Below, piece by piece: positions 1 through 7,441 of a stretch of DNA of 8,332 bases. Each line of letters opens with the position of its first letter. Positions within the stretch are counted from its first letter, which is position 1. Location of the stretch: the IMG/VR virus record IMGVR_UViG_2728369183_000008; one strand, given 5' to 3'. Origin of the DNA: a virus. Its lineage: Duplodnaviria > Heunggongvirae > Uroviricota > Caudoviricetes. The position numbers and the translations under genes are program-made. The notes below the pieces were generated by a model. That model ran no database searches. It had not been told where the DNA came from and saw only the letters and a list, made by a program, of their open reading frames with translations.

Positions 1-279
1 TTACCTCCAGATGCGTTGCTGGAATGTGCGGGACAGACGCGGTGGGCGTTCGGAGTAAGGAAGCCTGACGGAGATTATCCAGTGACGGTAGTCGAGGCTA
101 AGGGCTTTTTTAACCTCGCATCCGCGCCTGCGGTAACACTGAATGAGCCATTCGGCCTGTTCTTCAGTGCATGGGGGATGCTGGTACCAGTCTGACTTAA
201 ATGCGTGAGAATACCGCTCGTGCGTGTGGGCAAGAACGGTCGAATTATCATGTTTGTAATATTTTGCGTTGCGTGCCAT
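1..279 (-). CDS. Hypothetical prophage protein, N-terminal 92 codons only; C-terminus lies beyond the window start
   Basis: ATG at 279..277 on the - strand, preceded by GGAG with a 7-nt spacer; open to the window edge. By position (downstream of the hok and Rem-like genes) it may correspond to the YdfU-like gene of Qin-type prophages, but I do not recognise the sequence. Confidence 0.5.
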   Translation of the reverse strand: MARNAKYYKHDNSTVLAHTHERYSHAFKSDWYQHPPCTEEQAEWLIQCYRRRGCEVKKALSLDYRHWIISVRLPYSERPPRLSRTFQQRIWR

Positions 280-345
280 CGGTTTTCTCCGGTGGCACGG
301 TGTTACTCAGCGGGAGTTCAGCCCCGCGCAAGATTGTAGATGAGT

Positions 346-597
346 TTATTCTTCTGAAAAAGCAGAAAAGCCAGCTTTTATTCCGATCTCTTTCAATACC
401 TGTAATGAAGTGACAAACTCACCGTCGCGCAAGATAAATCCGTCCGTCACTCGGGCATCCACAAAATTAATTAACGCAGCCCCATTTTTTTGCAAACACA
501 CAATGCGGTAATGACTAACAATATTTCCATTTTCAACGCACACAGCATAGAGGCCATCTTCACAAAAAATTTTACGCAGTTCTTCGATGTTCATCAT
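346..597 (-). CDS. Small prophage protein, 83 aa, possible Rem homolog
   Basis: Tandem ATG start at 597..592 with GGAAGG 6 nt upstream; stop at 346. Lies directly downstream of the hokD-like gene on the same strand, as rem does in E. coli K-12 Qin (order quuQ-ydfU-rem-hokD from memory). Length matches, sequence identity not verified. Confidence 0.55.
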   Translation of the reverse strand: MMNIEELRKIFCEDGLYAVCVENGNIVSHYRIVCLQKNGAALINFVDARVTDGFILRDGEFVTSLQVLKEIGIKAGFSAFSEE

Positions 598-728
598 CAG
601 AATCCTTCCGGATAATTAGCTCTCCCCTTTAAGGGACCATCCCTCTTATCCCTGCGCGCTACTTAAGTATTTTTGATTCTATTCCGGCACCGTCCAGAAC
701 TTCAAATGCGTTGAAAATAAAAACAAAA

Positions 729-744
729 ACCCGCCGAAGCGGGT
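729..744 (-). terminator. Rho-independent terminator at the 3' end of the hok mRNA
   Basis: + strand ACCCGC-CGAA-GCGGGT hairpin at 729..744, preceded on + by an A-rich run (709..729), which is a U-tract after the hairpin on the - strand transcript. Confidence 0.55.
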
Positions 745-813
745 TAAGTGCGGGTGCGTTGAGAATGCCTGCCACATCAGAGGTGGCGAGGGATTTCTCC
801 CTCGCCGGGTCTC

Positions 814-969
814 TTACTCCTCAGGTTCGTAAGCTGTGAAGACAGCGACCTCCGTCTGGCCGGTTCGGATTCGTACCTCGCAGAGGTCTTTCCTCGTTAC
901 CAGTGCCGTCACTATGACGGTTAAACAGATGACGATCAGGGCGATTAACATCGCCTTTTGCTGCTTCAT
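814..969 (-). CDS. hokD: Hok-family type I toxin, 51 aa, HokD/RelF-like
   Basis: Translation from the sequence: MKQQKAMLIALIVICLTVIVTALVTRKDLCEVRIRTGQTEVAVFTAYEPEE. Single TM helix followed by the conserved Hok C-terminal region (RKDLCE...EVAVF..AYE). AAGGAG sits 9 nt upstream of the ATG. Matches HokD as I recall it. Confidence 0.9.
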   Translation of the reverse strand: MKQQKAMLIALIVICLTVIVTALVTRKDLCEVRIRTGQTEVAVFTAYEPEE

Positions 970-1025
970 AGCCTGCTTCTCCTTGACCTTTCGGTCCGTA
1001 AGAGGCTAATCTCTATGTGTCGCAT
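966..1025 (-). CDS. mok-like leader ORF, 19 codons, stop overlapping the hok start (ATGA)
   Basis: ATG at 1025..1023 with GAGG 8 nt upstream; reads MRHIEISLLRTERSRRSRL and ends with TGA overlapping the hok ATG. Position matches mok of hok/sok loci. Short, so uncertain. Confidence 0.35.
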   Translation of the reverse strand: MRHIEISLLRTERSRRSRL

Positions 1026-1085
1026 AGATATGGCCTCAGATTAATGTTAAGCGTCTTGCAGGACGCGTAATGTTAACTGGGGCTT
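1019..1085 (+). ncRNA. Predicted Sok-like antisense RNA; ends approximate
   Basis: + strand -35 TTGACC (983..988) and -10 TAATCT (1007..1012), 18-nt spacer, lying opposite the hok ribosome-binding region. A transcript from here would be antisense to the hok mRNA leader and mok start, as Sok is in characterised hok/sok loci. No clear terminator found, so the 3' end is a guess. Confidence 0.25.
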
Positions 1086-1144
1086 TTCTCTATCTGCCTT
1101 TTGGTGTTCATGCCTGAGACAGATAGCCTCAAGCACCCGCAGTT

Positions 1145-1172
1145 ATTCTACTTAACTAAGATTTCCCCGCAA
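1145..1172 (-). promoter_or_regulatory. Candidate hok mRNA promoter
   Basis: On the - strand: -35 TTGCGG (+ coords 1167..1172), 16-nt spacer, -10 TAGAAT (1145..1150), a few nt upstream of the conserved hok mRNA 5' element GCGGGTGCTTGAGGC (~1140..1126). Confidence 0.4.
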
Positions 1173-1227
1173 ACCGTTTTTGTCCGGCACAGTAAATATC
1201 CAACTAAACCAATGGCGTTCGCTGTAT

Positions 1228-1407
1228 TTACCGCCAGTATTCAATGCACATGACCGCCATGAACACCCCTAAAAAAAGGGCATTTATATGTCCAAACATT
1301 AATATCAAAACATCAATTTTTTCCATATACCTTGCTGTGAAGATGATGGGCATACATGATGCGAACAACCAGAACGCAACAAACAAAAACTGCAATGCGT
1401 TTTTCAT
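1228..1407 (-). CDS. Small hydrophobic protein, about 59 aa from the internal ATG; function unknown
   Basis: ATG at 1407..1405 preceded by GGGGG 4 nt upstream; reads MKNALQFLFVAFWLFASCMPIIFTARYMEKIDVLILMFGHINALFLGVFMAVMCIEYWR, consistent with two TM helices. The longer track ORF (to 1446) starts at GTG. AT-rich region, so a chance ORF is possible. Confidence 0.3.
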   Translation of the reverse strand: MKNALQFLFVAFWLFASCMPIIFTARYMEKIDVLILMFGHINALFLGVFMAVMCIEYWR

Positions 1408-1527
1408 TATTCCCCCTACAATCAATGTGCAATAACATTTAAACACACCTCAATTTGGCCGGACATATAAATATCTAAACCAGAAAAAATCACTTACATA
1501 GCGTTACAAACTCTTTAGTCTAAATAT

Positions 1528-2043
1528 TCATCGTAAAACATCCTCCACGCTTATCAGTCCATTTCGTTTCAGGTAATCTATCGCCTTCTCCGGTAATTTG
1601 CAGTCCGGCTGAGCTTTTTTCAGTTGACTGACCAGTCGTTTAACCCACATTGTTAATTCGCTAACCTGATTGCCGGATGCTGGTGGATTGTCGGCTTTAC
1701 CCAGAATGGCAGCGCAGCAGGCCTCTCTGAGCACCCAGTCAACAGCATCCTTCCATGCTCCTGTTTCGACTGGCGGATTCTCACGCTTTACCTGTTCATA
1801 AAAGCGCACGGCTTTAACCAGTCCTTCTGATGTCACCGGGACTGGCGGGCCGATGAATAAGGCCTGAATTTCATAGTTCGGCCTGTCGTTACAATCCTCT
1901 TTTGTCGGTACATATTTCCAGTCACCAGCCCACGGCTTCCCCTGAAAGTCTGTAACGTCTTTTTTCACGTAGCGATATCGCCATGCAACTGGTTTTGCCT
2001 GCCCTGCCGTTTCATGCCCTTCCTGATAATTAATCTCGCTCAT
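1528..2043 (-). CDS. Hypothetical prophage protein, 171 aa
   Basis: ATG at 2043..2041 overlaps the stop of the upstream ORF (ATGA), indicating translational coupling. Long ORF with normal composition. No family recognised. Confidence 0.7.
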   Translation of the reverse strand: MSEINYQEGHETAGQAKPVAWRYRYVKKDVTDFQGKPWAGDWKYVPTKEDCNDRPNYEIQALFIGPPVPVTSEGLVKAVRFYEQVKRENPPVETGAWKDAVDWVLREACCAAILGKADNPPASGNQVSELTMWVKRLVSQLKKAQPDCKLPEKAIDYLKRNGLISVEDVLR

Positions 2044-2197
2044 TCATCGCCCCACTCATCACAATATGCTTCGACCGGAGTTTTTCCTGCTTCATAATCA
2101 TCACGCCATGCTTCAGCATCAGCAGCACTGCCACCACGTAACTCTGCATAGTCCATTAACAGTTCATGCCATGCTTCAAAACTGACGTTGTATTTAG
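2040..2197 (-). pseudogene. 3' fragment of a prophage gene truncated by IS5 (ends ...AEAWRDDYEAGKTPVEAYCDEWGDE)
   Basis: The reading frame is open from the IS5 left boundary (2197) to the stop at 2042..2040. It does not continue on the other side of IS5: the sequence right of the element shows an in-frame TAA and no start codon in that frame. Confidence 0.5.
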
Positions 2198-3392
<1,195 letters not shown>

Positions 3393-3578
3393 TCAGGTAA
3401 GGGACGAACAAAAAATCCTCGGTGAATGCCTCCCGTTAAAAAAAGTATCGCTGAACCTGAATAACGAAATACCGGCTGGATAACCCGCCAGCCATATTAA
3501 CGCCATACCAACGGATTAAAAATGCCAGCAATGGCAGGGATTCGTTCACCCTGAAATCTGTAATGAGGTTAAAACACA

Positions 3579-6013
3579 ATGAGTAAAATCTTTATTTGCG
3601 CTGCTATTCCTGACGAACAGGCCATAAAAGAAGATAGCGCTGTTGCGGTGGCCACTGCCATTGAAGCCGGTGATGAACGTCGCGCCCGCGCAAAATTTCA
3701 CTGGCAATTCCTGGAACATTATCCGGCTGCTCAGGACTGCGCTTATAAATTTCTTGTTTGCGAGGATAAACCCGGCATACCCCGCCCTGCCCTCGATTCC
3801 TGGGATGCTGAATATATGCAGGAAAACCGCTGGGATGAGGAATCCGCTTCCTTTATTCCGGTCGAACCAGAATCCGATCCGATGAACGTCAATTTTGACA
3901 AGCTGTCCCTTGAAGTACAGAACGCGGTCCTGGTTAAGTTCGGTACATGTGAAAACATCACCGTTGATATGGCGATTGACGCGCAGGAATTACTGCAGGA
4001 AGACGTTGCTACCTTTGACGGGCATATCGTTGAAGCACTGATGAAAACGCCTGAAATTAACGCTATGTATCCGGAACGCAAACTGTTCGCTATCGGATGG
4101 GTTAAACACAAATGTAATCCGGGTGCCAAATGGCCAGAAATTCAGGCTGAATTACGTAACTGGAAAAAACGGCAGGACGCAGAGCGCAAAGAGACTGGAA
4201 AATACACGTCTGTTGTTGATCTCGCCCGCGCCAGAGTCAATCAACAGCACACTGAAAACTCAGCAGGAAAAATCAACCCAGTCACTGCCGCCATTTGTCG
4301 CGAATACAAGCAGACATGGAAAACGCTGGATGAAGAACTGGCCTACGCTCTCTGGCCTGGCGATATTGATACCGGAAACATTGACGGCAGCATCCATCGC
4401 CGGGCAAAAAATGAAGTTATCGACAAAGATCGCGAAGACTGGAAGCGCATTTCCGCATCAATGCGCAAACAACCCGATGCCGTTCGCTACGACCGTCAGA
4501 CTATTTTTGGCCTTGTCCGTGAGCGTCCGATCGACATTCACAAAGATCCCGTAGCACTGAACAAATACATCACTGAATACCTGACTACCAAGGGCGTGTT
4601 TGAAGATGACGAAGGAACAAATCAGGGCACAGCTGGTACTCTCCCGTCACCAGTACCAGAAACTGATGCAGTGGAAACGGCAATGCCGGACAACGAAAAA
4701 ACCGAATGCGAAGTGGAAGACGAACCATCTGTAGAGCGTGAGGGACCGTTCTACTTCCTTTTCACCGATAAGGACGGCGAAAAATACGGTCGCGCAAACA
4801 AACTTTCTGGTCTGGAAAAAGCACTGGCCCTGGGAGCTACGGAAATCACAAAAGAGGAATACTTCGCACGTAAAAACGGCACGTACTCAGGTTCACAACA
4901 AAATACTGGTGCATCTGACACGATCGCACAACCAGAGCCGGTAAAAGTTACCGCTGACGAAGTAAACAAAATTATGCAGGCAGCCAATATCAGCCAGCCT
5001 GACGCCAATAAGTTGCTTGCTGTATCACGTGGTGAATTTGTTGCAGGGATTAGCGACCCGAATGATCCGAAATGGGTGAAGGGGATTGAAACCCGCGATT
5101 CAGTGAATCAGAACCAGCAAGAAACGGAACAGAACGGCCAGAAAGCGGAACAAAACAGCCCAAATGCGTTACAAAACGAGCCAGAAACGAAACATCCTGA
5201 ACCAGTGGCGCAACAGGAAGTGGAAAAAGTCTGCACCGCCTGCGGTCAGACCGGCGGCGGCAACTACCCTGATTGTGGCGCGGTGATGGGCGACGCAACA
5301 TACCAGGAAACATTCGATGAAGAGTATCAGGTTGAAGTTCAGGAAGATGATCCGGAGGAAATGGAAGGCGCTGAACATCCACACAAGGAGAACACTGGCG
5401 GCAATCAGCATCACGATAGCGATAATGAAACTGGCGAGACGGCAGATCACTCAATTAAGGTGAACGGTCATCAAGAAATCACATCCACCAGCAGGACGTG
5501 TGACCATCTAATGATCGACCTTGAAACCATGGGAAAAAATCCTGATGCCCCGATCATCTCAATAGGTGCAATATTTTTCGATCCGCAAACCGGAGATATG
5601 GGACCGGAATTTAGTAAGACTATCGATCTGGAAACTGCTGGCGGGGTCATTGATCGGGACACCATTAAATGGTGGCTTAAGCAATCACGCGAAGCGCAAT
5701 CTGCCATTATGACCGATGAAATCCCGTTAGATGATGCACTGTTACAATTGCGGGAATTTATCGACGAAAACTCCGGTGAATTTTTTGTTCAGGTCTGGGG
5801 AAATGGAGCCAACTTCGACAACACGATTTTGCGCCGTTCATACGAACGGCANNNNNNNNNNNNNNNNNNNNNNNNNNNNNNNNNNNNNNNNNNNNNNNNN
5901 NNNNNNNNNNNNNNNNNNNNNNNNNNNNNNNNNNNNNNNNNNNNNNTCGTTACCAGGCAAAATACGTTTCAGCTATCTGGCAAAAACTGATCCCGAGTCA
6001 GGCTGATTTTTAA
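3579..6013 (+). CDS. Prophage RecE-like exonuclease (often annotated exodeoxyribonuclease VIII) with a C-terminal DEDD-type 3'-5' exonuclease domain; interrupted by an assembly gap
   Basis: ATG at 3579 with GAGG upstream. Internal segment KLLAVSRGEFVAGISDPNDPKWVKGIETRD resembles a RecE segment I recall. C-terminal region has Exo I (MIDLETMG) and Exo II (GNGANFDNTIL) motifs. With the gap taken as 95 nt the in-frame stop is at 5990; if the gap length is a multiple of 3 the stop is at 6011..6013 (tail RYQAKYVSAIWQKLIPSQADF). The end coordinate is therefore uncertain. Confidence 0.75.
5852..5946. other. Assembly gap (95 N)
   Basis: Run of n characters; real length and content unknown. Confidence 1.
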
Positions 6014-6028
6014 TGTTCAACCCTAATT

Positions 6029-6054
6029 GCCGCTAACCGTATATAGTTAGCGGC
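6029..6054 (+). promoter_or_regulatory. Perfect 9-bp stem-loop between the exonuclease and xis genes
   Basis: GCCGCTAAC (6029..6037), 8-nt loop, GTTAGCGGC (6046..6054). No following T-tract, so not a classical intrinsic terminator; could be an RNA structure or a protein-binding palindrome. Confidence 0.3.
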
Positions 6055-6071
6055 GGTTATGAGATATAGCT

Positions 6072-6275
6072 ATGAGCAGCTTATTTTTAACCGAAGATGA
6101 ATTGCTAATATTAACGGGCTGCAAATATGCAAGCCACCAGCGAAAATGGTTAATGGAAAACGGGCTTCCGTTCTATACCAATCGTAGTGGCAAACCGATT
6201 GTCAGCCGGGATCTATTTACCTGCAATAAAACTTTACCACCACGCGAGGTAGAGCCGAATTTTGGTGCGATCTGA
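6072..6275 (+). CDS. Excisionase-like protein, DUF4224-type (67 aa)
   Basis: Small ORF immediately upstream of the integrase, with its stop overlapping the int start (ATGA at 6272..6275). N-terminal MSSLFLTEDELLILTGCKYASHQRKWLMENGLPFYTNRSGKPIVSRDLF resembles the DUF4224 family commonly paired with integrases. Not lambda-Xis-like. Confidence 0.65.
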   Translation: MSSLFLTEDELLILTGCKYASHQRKWLMENGLPFYTNRSGKPIVSRDLFTCNKTLPPREVEPNFGAI

Positions 6276-7299
6276 TGGGAAGACGAAGGAAAAATCCTGA
6301 ACACGAAAAATTACCTCCAAATGTATACCCAAATAAATATAGTTATGTATGGAAACCAACATCCAGAGAATCTGTCACACTAACCGCCATCAAGGATGGT
6401 TTAGCTGCTTTATGGAAAAAGTATGAGGAAACTGTAAATAATCGCGATCGTGCAATGACATTCGGTCGCTTGTGGGAAAAATTCCTCGCCAGCGCCTGTT
6501 ACAGTGACCTTAGTCCAAGAACACAAAAAGATTATCTGCAACATCAAAAAAAGTTGCTTGCCGTATTCGGTAAGGTACCAGCGGATTCCATAAAACCAGA
6601 ACACATCCGTCGATACATGGACAAAAGAGGGGAGCAGAGTAAAACGCAAGCCAACCATGAAAAAGCAGTATGTCCCGTGTTTACAGTTGGGGGTATGAGC
6701 GAGGGTACGTCAAGGCTAACCCATGTGCAGGTGTAAGTAAATTCAAGGCCAAAAACCGCGAACGATATGTAACCGACAAAGAATACCAGGCAGTATTAAG
6801 CGTTGCACCTCTTCCTGTTTTTATCGCAATGGAAATTGCCTATCTGTGTGCAGCGAGGGTTTCCGATGTGTTATCGCTGAAATGGGAACAGATTGGAAAC
6901 GACGGGATATTCATCCAGCAAGGGAAAACCGGAAAAAAACAGATAAAAGCATGGAGTCCACGATTACAGGCAGCGATCGAAAAAGCAAAACAGTTACCAA
7001 AATCTGCCTATGTGATCAGCAATCAATACGGCAACCGATATATGTACAAAGGCTTTAACGAAATGTGGGTAGAAGCAAGAAATCGTGCTGGAAAAATTTC
7101 AGGTATTTTAACCGACTTCACCTTTCATGATCTGAAGGCGAAAGGAATTTCAGACTATGAAGGAAGCAGCCGGGATAAGCAACTTTTCTCTGGTCACAAA
7201 ACCGAAGGGCAAGTGCTAATCTATGACAGGAAGGTTAAAGTTTCACCAACACTTGATGTCCCGTTACCTGAAAATATTCCAAGAAAATATTCCAAGTAA
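6275..7299 (+). pseudogene. Lambda-family tyrosine integrase, disrupted by a frameshift
   Basis: N-terminus MGRRRKNPEHEKLPPNVY resembles lambda Int (MGRRRSHERRDLPPNLY). C-terminal part has candidate catalytic residues R (AARVSD), K (QGKTG), H (TFHDL), H (GHKTEG), Y (LIYDRK). The reading frame changes between 6661 and 6733, most plausibly at the A5 run 6660..6664; the two track ORFs are 6275..6736 and 6670..7299. The HxxR box reads HDLK (AAG at the Arg position). Confidence 0.85.
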
Positions 7300-7351: not shown

Positions 7352-7441
7352 TGGCGGAGAGAGGGGGATTTGAACCCCCGGTGGAGTTGCCCCCACTCCG
7401 GTTTTCGAGACCGGTCCGTTCAGCCGCTCCGGCATCTCTCC
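7352..7441 (-). tRNA. serU: tRNA-Ser (anticodon CGA), type II with long variable arm
   Basis: Reverse complement reads GGAGAGATGCCGGAGCGG...CCGGTCTCGAAAACCGG...GGGGGTTCAAATCCCCCTCTCTCCGCCA. Anticodon loop CU-CGA-AA, T-arm GGGGG/CCCCC, 3' CCA encoded. 90 nt. Confidence 0.95.

Follow-up and report, generated by a model that had tools for sequence, protein, structure and literature searches.

A YdfE-type prophage protein with a RecE-like middle, a C-terminal DEDDh exonuclease domain and no annealing-protein partner gene

The exonuclease gene and its C-terminal DEDDh head

The window analysed here is an 8,332-nucleotide (nt) stretch from the IMG/VR virus record IMGVR_UViG_2728369183_000008 (Caudoviricetes), taken as a whole. 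It is part of a defective lambdoid Escherichia coli prophage at tRNA-Ser(CGA), next to mtfA. Its plus strand carries an exonuclease gene of 824 codons, the product of which combines an N-terminal part of the YdfE type, a middle that can be aligned with RecE of the K-12 Rac prophage and a C-terminal domain (the head) of the DEDDh 3'-to-5' exonuclease type. The parts of the gene are listed below in window positions, with amino acids (aa) of the product and the basis of each assignment in brackets (pLDDT, predicted local distance difference test of AlphaFold2; dN/dS, ratio of nonsynonymous to synonymous substitution).

3579..6013, plus strand: YdfE-type / DEDDh exonuclease gene, complete (open reading frame list, sequence, unmasked copy)
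3579..4238, plus strand: N-terminal globular domain of YdfE type, aa 1-220 (pLDDT, ydfE identity, precomputed Pfam)
4299..4598, plus strand: second, helical domain, aa 241-340, in which the RecE-alignable stretch begins at aa 262 (pLDDT 91-97)
4731..4883, plus strand: small conserved beta-rich module, aa 385-435 (pLDDT 92-96 at aa 391-430, dN/dS)
5008..5448, plus strand: recE-like segment at the DNA level, aa 477-624, mostly disordered acidic tether (blastn)
5232..5279, plus strand: Cys cluster CTACGQTGGGNYPDCG, aa 552-567 (motif scan over relatives, RecE alignment)
5505..5980, plus strand: DEDDh 3'-to-5' exonuclease domain (Rv2179c-like / DexA-like), aa 643-814, its last third partly under the N run
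5852..5946, no strand: N run, 95 N in place of 135 real bases, Exo III motif included

A single open reading frame (ORF) starts with the ATG at 3579 and is closed by the TAA at 6011-6013, and a Shine-Dalgarno sequence, GAGG, is located 9 nt 5' of the ATG. The frame seems to break near 5850 because the 95 N replace 135 real bases. ORF calls made from the window alone truncate or misread the C-terminus of the exonuclease. Megablast against complete E. coli genomes gave copies matching all visible bases; one of them, in strain LC-1302-2020 (locus L001), was 99.96% and 99.92% identical to the window on the two sides of the N run. With the masked bases restored from L001, the frame has 824 codons and ends at window position 6013, in agreement with the preliminary description of this DNA, which had put the product at about 800 aa with the same end coordinate. 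The unmasked copy (L001:12180-14654) encodes RefSeq WP_001555072.1, an 824-aa protein annotated 'exonuclease', and PHROG 2082 was matched over its full length. The internal ATG at 5511, described before as lacking a strong ribosome-binding site, encodes M645, and the nearest AGGA is indeed 14 nt upstream. Separate translation of the DEDDh domain from this ATG was rejected because no usable ribosome-binding site was found. Short 'proteins' of this kind in the databases are contig-end fragments or internal deletions. In P0056, P0067 and P0119 (392-532 aa) the YdfE N-terminus is fused directly to a DEDDh domain reduced to its last two-thirds, without Exo I. Such variants represent either alleles that decayed through internal deletion or false joins made in assembly between repeated prophages.

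The identity of the C-terminal domain was given by Pfam and by its motifs. In the unmasked copy, PF16473 (Rv2179c-like) matched aa 643-814 with E 1.6e-67 and 227.1 bits against a cut-off of 27, the match spanning positions 2-177 of the 177 of the profile; the visible part of the window gave E 5.5e-41 and 140.6 bits. RNase_T (PF00929) was a weak secondary match. The DLET and FDNTIL motifs, from which a DnaQ-like C-terminus had been proposed, are Exo I at aa 647-650 (nt 5517-5528; D647 and E649) and Exo II at aa 746-751 (nt 5814-5831; D747). Exo III can now be added as HNALDD (H797-x4-D802); it lies inside the masked stretch and was read from L001, whose flanks are 99.9% identical. D647, E649, D747, H797 and D802 correspond to D7, E9, D119, H186 and D191 of T4 DexA, that is, all five DEDDh catalytic residues are kept. 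DexA (8KEL, E 1.4e-6) was the sole solved relative found by a sequence search of the PDB. When Pfam was applied to all parts of the protein, the C-terminus fell within the DEDDh family and not outside the DEDD superfamily, and from its sequence we assign it to the DEDDh 3'-5' exonuclease class with high confidence.

T4 DexA is a 3'-to-5' DNA exonuclease preferring single-stranded DNA (ssDNA), and the plasmid-borne E. coli protein EcD ('HREX') protects from T4 and cuts DNA containing 5-hydroxymethylcytosine (5hmC) but not unmodified DNA (PMC12153337). The window head shares with DexA the DEDDh family, the same five catalytic residues and 25-28% identity across the domain, but not the extra loops of DexA. 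DexA (227 aa) and EcD (189 aa) each consist of one domain, whereas the window head makes up the last fifth of 824 aa. EcD-type ORFs were recovered from IMG/VR via the published forward primer. They are 189 aa long and have A78 as PMC12153337 describes, and their 3' end fits the reverse primer save one base; their identity to the window head was 37-39% over 183 aa, with E about 1e-37. W152 and D169 of DexA have been reported as 5hmC-recognition residues (PMC12153337). The position of W152 is occupied by Tyr in the window head (PWRYYNDRD) and by Trp in EcD and most phage homologues, and the D169 region aligns unreliably. By this comparison the catalytic chemistry of DexA and EcD would be transferable to the window head, whereas their specificity for modified DNA would not. 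The polarity of the nuclease, which the preliminary description had left open, is less so with DexA annotated and described as a 3'-to-5' DNA exonuclease and nuclease activity shown for EcD (PMC12153337).

Closer homologues of the head stand alone in other phages. Gp032 of mEpX2, gp26 of mEp460 and Sb30 of ST64B are 58-61% identical to the head and keep the catalytic residues, but they are only about 180-190 aa long and have no scaffold. The homologue lies directly before xis in mEp460 and ST64B, and three genes upstream of xis, in the early-left operon, in mEpX2. Its neighbours in mEpX2 encode a Rad52/22 protein, SSB and Abc2; those in mEp460 and ST64B encode a YfdQ-like protein (DUF2303) and a YfdR-like phosphatase, and two other phages have methyltransferases. 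In mEp460, ST64B and Pseudomonas phage vB_PstS-pAN, the homologue shares an early operon with YfdQ/DUF2303 and a YfdR-like deoxynucleoside monophosphate phosphatase or phosphohydrolase. This association may hint at a nucleotide-scavenging module. A further DEDDh homologue, in the P2-like Klebsiella phage ST16-OXA48phi5.4 (L019:3004-3567), lacks the Glu of Exo I, the Asp of Exo II and the His of Exo III and, judged by these replacements, is probably catalytically dead.

The scaffold, its relatives and their heads

The part of the protein in front of the head was compared with RecE and YdfE. BLASTP aligned aa 262-626 with residues 278-591 of K-12 RecE (E 3e-60), and blastn aligned 441 nt (aa 477-624) at 77% identity with K-12 recE codons 456-589, which bears out the internal segment common to RecE that had been noticed before. 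The alignment ends at RecE 591, just ahead of the PD-(D/E)XK domain of RecE. Neither PF12684 (PD-(D/E)XK) nor PF06630 (Exonuc_VIII) was found by Pfam in the 824-aa protein, while K-12 RecE scores E 6.1e-98 with PF06630. The absence of PF12684 together with the presence of PF16473 upholds the description of a DEDD domain in place of the RecE nuclease fold. NCBIfam NF007259, the equivalog model of ExoVIII, scored 275.8 bits against a cut-off of 1269, and only aa 448-626 matched it, at profile positions 440-602. The label 'RecE-like' is thus appropriate for the middle of the protein and not for its N-terminal 256 aa, which are of the YdfE type, nor for its nuclease head. A recent exchange with recE was rejected; the exchange must be old, since the DNA of the common segment shows no more than 77% identity.

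Window protein and K-12 RecE are alike in being longer than 800 aa, in a similar early-left operon place upstream of xis and int, in ending with a nuclease and in an alignable middle with an acidic disordered tether and a Cys cluster. They differ at both ends: RecE has an Exonuc_VIII (PF06630) N-terminus and a 5'-to-3' PD-(D/E)XK head (PF12684) accompanied by recT, in contrast to the YdfE-type N-terminus and the DEDDh 3'-to-5' head without recT of the window protein. The acidic linkers have an Asp plus Glu fraction of 0.30-0.38 at aa 341-400 and 561-620, and pLDDT fell below 50 at aa 345-384, 440-457 and most of 503-640, as would be expected of the long acidic, low-complexity linkers of the preliminary description. 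The Cys cluster of the relatives, RecE included, reads C-x2-C-x7-C-x2-C and may bind zinc; the window allele has Tyr563 for the third Cys, and AlphaFold2 confidence is low around the cluster.

The first 256 residues are 87% identical to ydfE (b1577), a pseudogene of the K-12 Qin prophage, which indicates that the window gene is the intact form of ydfE. K-12 ydfE also has dicB and ydfD as upstream neighbours, as in L001, but an IS2 interrupts it some 256 codons in and all that follows, the nuclease included, is lacking, whereas the window gene is complete. Homologues that are 69-100% identical to aa 1-346 carry precomputed matches to PF27430 (YdfE_N) and PF27432 (YdfE_C), and by sequence the N-terminus is a member of the YdfE family. 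An AlphaFold2 model of aa 1-640, built on a 59-sequence alignment of distant relatives, had confident domains at aa 1-220, 241-340 and 385-435, the rest being disordered. The pLDDT of aa 1-220 was 93-98 for the most part, 83 in one block and 78 in the last. The module at aa 385-435 is found in many relatives, and it falls into a gap of the K-12 RecE alignment and so is absent from K-12 RecE.

DNA similar to the gene was found in 4800 of 5426 complete E. coli genomes (∼88%), often in several copies, and also in Stx-related and other temperate phages, so that the wide occurrence in E. coli prophages stated in the preliminary description is now given by count. ORFs of 823 aa with 85-93% protein identity are present in the viable phage Tritos, whose genome is complete, and in E. 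ruysiae and E. albertii genomes. An exhaustive HMMER search with aa 1-640 against 1.84 billion representative proteins gave just 250 relatives, and by genome scan these are essentially from Escherichia and Shigella only. RefSeq, PHROG (group 2082) and Pfam all list the protein, and it is very common; it is uncharacterised and stands between two known kinds. That it is poorly characterised had been said before, and indeed we found no paper studying any long form.

Selection was estimated by the Nei-Gojobori method on orthologous regions of copies from E. ruysiae, E. albertii, phage Tritos and a metagenome bin. The dN/dS was 0.09-0.12 for aa 1-220, 0.11-0.19 for aa 241-340 and 0.03-0.04 for aa 385-435, the minimum of the gene; for the DEDDh domain it was 0.07-0.27, a range resting on very few substitutions. 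The linkers had mostly 0.3-0.8, with 2.57 in one short-linker comparison. Synonymous divergence varies ∼20-fold along the length, indicating that the gene is a mosaic.

To classify the heads, 49 representatives of at least 500 aa were scored against reference domains. Their numbers by type of N-terminus and type of head were as follows.

YdfE-type N-terminus: DEDDh 2, PD-(D/E)XK 4, Rad52-like 15, no head detected 5
RecE-type N-terminus: DEDDh 2, PD-(D/E)XK 6, Rad52-like 1, no head detected 8
Both N-terminal types: DEDDh 1, PD-(D/E)XK 0, Rad52-like 0, no head detected 2
Other N-terminus: DEDDh 1, PD-(D/E)XK 2, Rad52-like 0, no head detected 0

YdfE-type and RecE-type N-termini each occur with all three kinds of head. 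The third kind gave no significant Pfam match. It is probably a Rad52-like annealase, a reading based on the Rad52-like signature RATEIFGP.G.GWG ... KKSLTDA.KKAL, on matches to PF04098 below threshold in eight of ten members (best E 0.0025), on an AlphaFold2 model with a core pLDDT of 80-92 and on a Sipho_Gp157 gene next downstream in its own context.

Partner genes and prophage setting

Neighbouring genes were examined at the DEDDh-headed places L001, L003, L004, phage Tritos, L022, L024, L025, L026 and L027, of which L025 and L026 have the same protein. All nine DEDDh-headed genes run into xis and int, and a gene for an annealing protein (RecT, Bet, Erf or Rad52-like) was found at none of these nine places (eight distinct proteins) and not in the window. 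The stretch from the repressor to the exonuclease has, Rha aside, no ORF big enough for an annealing protein. In the complete genome of Tritos no annealing protein is annotated, and five less-defined proteins checked by Pfam gave none. Among PD-(D/E)XK-headed relatives, by contrast, a Pfam RecT gene comes next in three of four (K-12 Rac; L023, E 2e-36; and L028), and the fourth, L029, has a 383-aa gene without a Pfam record in the RecT position. The lack of a RecT or Bet partner, already remarked for this locus, therefore extends from the window to the nine places, with no annealase gene nearby. With annealase genes lacking from the DEDDh neighbourhoods and RecT present in those of PD-(D/E)XK type, the missing partner is a rule of the DEDDh variant and not an accident of a decayed locus. 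The window protein differs in this respect from RecET and lambda Red, which have an adjacent annealing-protein gene. From these gene contexts we have good confidence that the DEDDh protein works without an annealase.

The order of genes in the operon was taken from intact relatives, namely L001, the PPompW prophages, phage vB_EcoS-813R8 and the complete genome of phage Tritos. It consists of a repressor of dicA or cI type, small genes, sometimes dicF or rha, then dicB, ydfD, the exonuclease gene, xis and int. In all of these the repressor-proximal left operon has the exonuclease gene as its last member ahead of xis and int, and ydfD is its native neighbour just upstream. The window has the same end of the operon, as the preliminary description had read it, next to traces of damage.

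6072..6275, plus strand: excisionase-like gene xis, DUF4224 (PF13986, E 1.9e-15; same order in L001 and L022)
6275..7299, plus strand: tyrosine integrase gene int, frameshifted, ORFs 6275-6736 and 6670-7299 (Pfam SAM-like and catalytic domains on separate ORFs)
7352..7441, minus strand: tRNA-Ser(CGA), prophage attachment site (ARAGORN, Rfam; mtfA by Peptidase_M90)
2198..3392, minus strand: IS5, replacing about 7.9 kb of the prophage (L001 alignment; DDE transposase PF01609)
3393..3483, plus strand: 3' remnant of ydfD (DUF1482), about 30 codons (L001 from 11994; DUF1482 gene at L001 11896-12084)

The split of the integrase by a frameshift suggests that the prophage is probably unable to excise; the integrase of L001 is likewise annotated 'frameshifted'. 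Window positions 1-2197 correspond to L001 1897-4093 and window positions 3393-5851 to L001 11994-14452. Relative to L001, the IS5-linked deletion removed the repressor, the early-left promoter region, the replication genes, rha, dicB and most of ydfD. The junctions of IS5 are at 2197/2198 and 3392/3393, and genes of the right operon are now joined directly to the exonuclease gene, which is thus cut off from its native promoter. A scan of window positions 3200-6300 for sigma-70-like promoters found none. Although intact, the ORF is an orphan within a prophage that is itself defective, and its expression is uncertain.

On the other side of IS5, hokD (814-969), sok RNA (967-1138; Rfam, 106.7 bits) and rem (346-597) were found, all on the minus strand; the hokD/sok toxin-antitoxin pair and rem confirm a prophage of the Qin/dicB type. 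An ORF at 1528-2043 (minus strand) encodes 171 aa without a Pfam match, is the hypothetical protein WP_001289993.1 in the reference strain and is a remnant of the right operon. The exonuclease gene abuts xis and int, and a function as recombination directionality factor was considered; it was dropped, the paper that had prompted it being concerned with a calcineurin-like protein and serine integrases.

Function of the protein

On balance, the protein appears to act by itself as an exonuclease on DNA ends in the 3'-to-5' direction. It would be made early after induction, on a scaffold that RecE-type and Rad52-type proteins also have. The gene would be an early (left-operon) lambdoid-phage nuclease made of interchangeable parts: the YdfE-type globular N-terminus, the module at aa 385-435, an acidic tether (about aa 450-640) and the DEDDh head. 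As suggested by the motifs and the characterised homologues, the head would strip single nucleotides from free 3'-OH ends by two-metal-ion hydrolysis, with D647, E649, D747 and D802 as predicted metal ligands and H797 as the predicted general base. Its preferred substrate would most likely be ssDNA, or the 3' tails or ends of linear DNA. The protein would not be half of a RecET- or Red-type pair, in keeping with a 3'-to-5' enzyme that destroys the 3' tail needed by an annealing protein. Because heads of 5'-to-3' nuclease or probable annealase type share the scaffold, it most likely delivers or organises the attached head at a common site, which could be, for example, DNA ends or a host partner. 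The role is the least certain step; it may be the degrading or trimming of linear DNA after induction, for scavenging, end processing or destruction of competing DNA. More tentatively, the YdfE/RecE-type scaffold could be a general platform that places varied DNA-end activities at the same cellular site, although we would not yet expect this wider idea to hold. Three activities are seen on it: 5'-to-3' nuclease in the company of RecT, 3'-to-5' nuclease without a partner, and the probable Rad52-like annealase.

Several observations weigh against a stand-alone DNA-end exonuclease. The mixed contexts of the stand-alone homologues do not fix one role. Foldseek of the aa 1-640 model against the PDB gave no fold match (best E = 1), and the role given to the scaffold rests on domain shuffling. 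Rv2179c, the founding member of the PF16473 family, is an exoribonuclease, so that an RNA substrate is possible. In the literature no functional study was found of ydfE, of PF16473 phage proteins or of any long form. The window copy itself, with Tyr563 in the Cys cluster and its native promoter deleted, may be impaired or silent.

The homology of EcD to the head raises the question whether the protein is instead an anti-phage (superinfection-exclusion) nuclease acting on incoming modified DNA, as EcD/HREX acts on T4. EcD, 37-39% identical to the head, protected E. coli from T4 and cut 5hmC DNA (PMC12153337), and the gene studied here is kept intact in many decayed prophages, that of the window included. 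PADLOC also gave a match, but a weak one (E 1.4e-5) to a generic CRISPR-associated DEDDh model and to no defence system; membership of a known defence system was rejected on this result. Expression in the lysogen is not expected: the early-left operon that the gene closes is under repressor control, and the search for a separate promoter gave none. Moreover, the equivalent of DexA W152 is Tyr in the window head but Trp in EcD, and EcD is a stand-alone protein of 189 aa as against 824 aa. We regard a defensive function as rather unlikely. The RNA exonuclease reading, by which the protein, like Rv2179c, would act on host or phage RNAs soon after induction, trimming or degrading them, follows the names: the best Pfam model is called '3'-5' exoribonuclease Rv2179c-like', RNase_T (PF00929) is the secondary match and some RefSeq copies are named '3'-5' exoribonuclease'. 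Bacterial DEDDh proteins of another clade defend against RNA phages, but the authors set these ISG20-like proteins apart from other defence-associated DEDDh domains (PMC13344964). By sequence the closest characterised relatives are the DNA exonucleases DexA and EcD, and the scaffold is otherwise fused to heads of DNA recombination (PD-(D/E)XK with RecT, Rad52-like), which makes RNA an improbable substrate.

It could also be supposed that the protein needs no RecT-type gene because its N-terminal and middle region supplies annealing or pairing itself, making it a self-contained recombinase. Sister proteins do fuse the same scaffold to the probable Rad52-like annealase, the stand-alone homologue of mEpX2 is flanked by SSB and Abc2, with a Rad52/22 gene shortly before it, and full-length RecE has been reported to boost linear-linear recombination beyond the nuclease domain alone (PMC11611040). 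However, Pfam searches of each scaffold sub-domain at E up to 10 returned noise only and no significant match; together with the Foldseek result, no annealase or second nuclease is recognisable in the scaffold. A 3'-to-5' nuclease would, besides, remove the 3' tail used for single-strand annealing, and we consider a self-contained recombinase very unlikely. That the gene is a decaying remnant without current function, in a prophage merely not yet purged, is hardly to be believed, even though the prophage is defective (frameshifted int, IS5-linked 7.9-kb deletion, native promoter lost), the conserved cluster has another residue for its third Cys, internally deleted variants without Exo I are in the databases and K-12 has just an IS2-truncated pseudogene. 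The window copy has its full 824 codons and all catalytic residues, and every folded domain is under purifying selection (dN/dS 0.03-0.27). The 823-aa ORFs of Tritos, E. ruysiae and E. albertii, 85-93% identical, point the same way; they speak for the family and not for expression of the window copy.

The protein has escaped study, possibly because K-12 carries only the truncated pseudogene ydfE. Annotation gives many copies the name 'exodeoxyribonuclease VIII' or 'ds DNA exonuclease', which implies the wrong fold, the wrong polarity and an absent partner. Were the protein to degrade modified phage DNA in the manner of EcD, prophages would carry with it a very widespread defence. A 2023 review (PMC11611040) gave the function of the RecE N-terminal part as unknown. 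The natural head swaps, and the strict rule that RecT goes with no head but the 5'-to-3' one, allow this part to be approached by comparison. Should the scaffold be a general platform, the DEDDh version would deal with DNA ends in a way of its own, independent of an annealase, and the unexplained N-terminal two-thirds of RecE would acquire a testable function, with three natural head swaps to compare.

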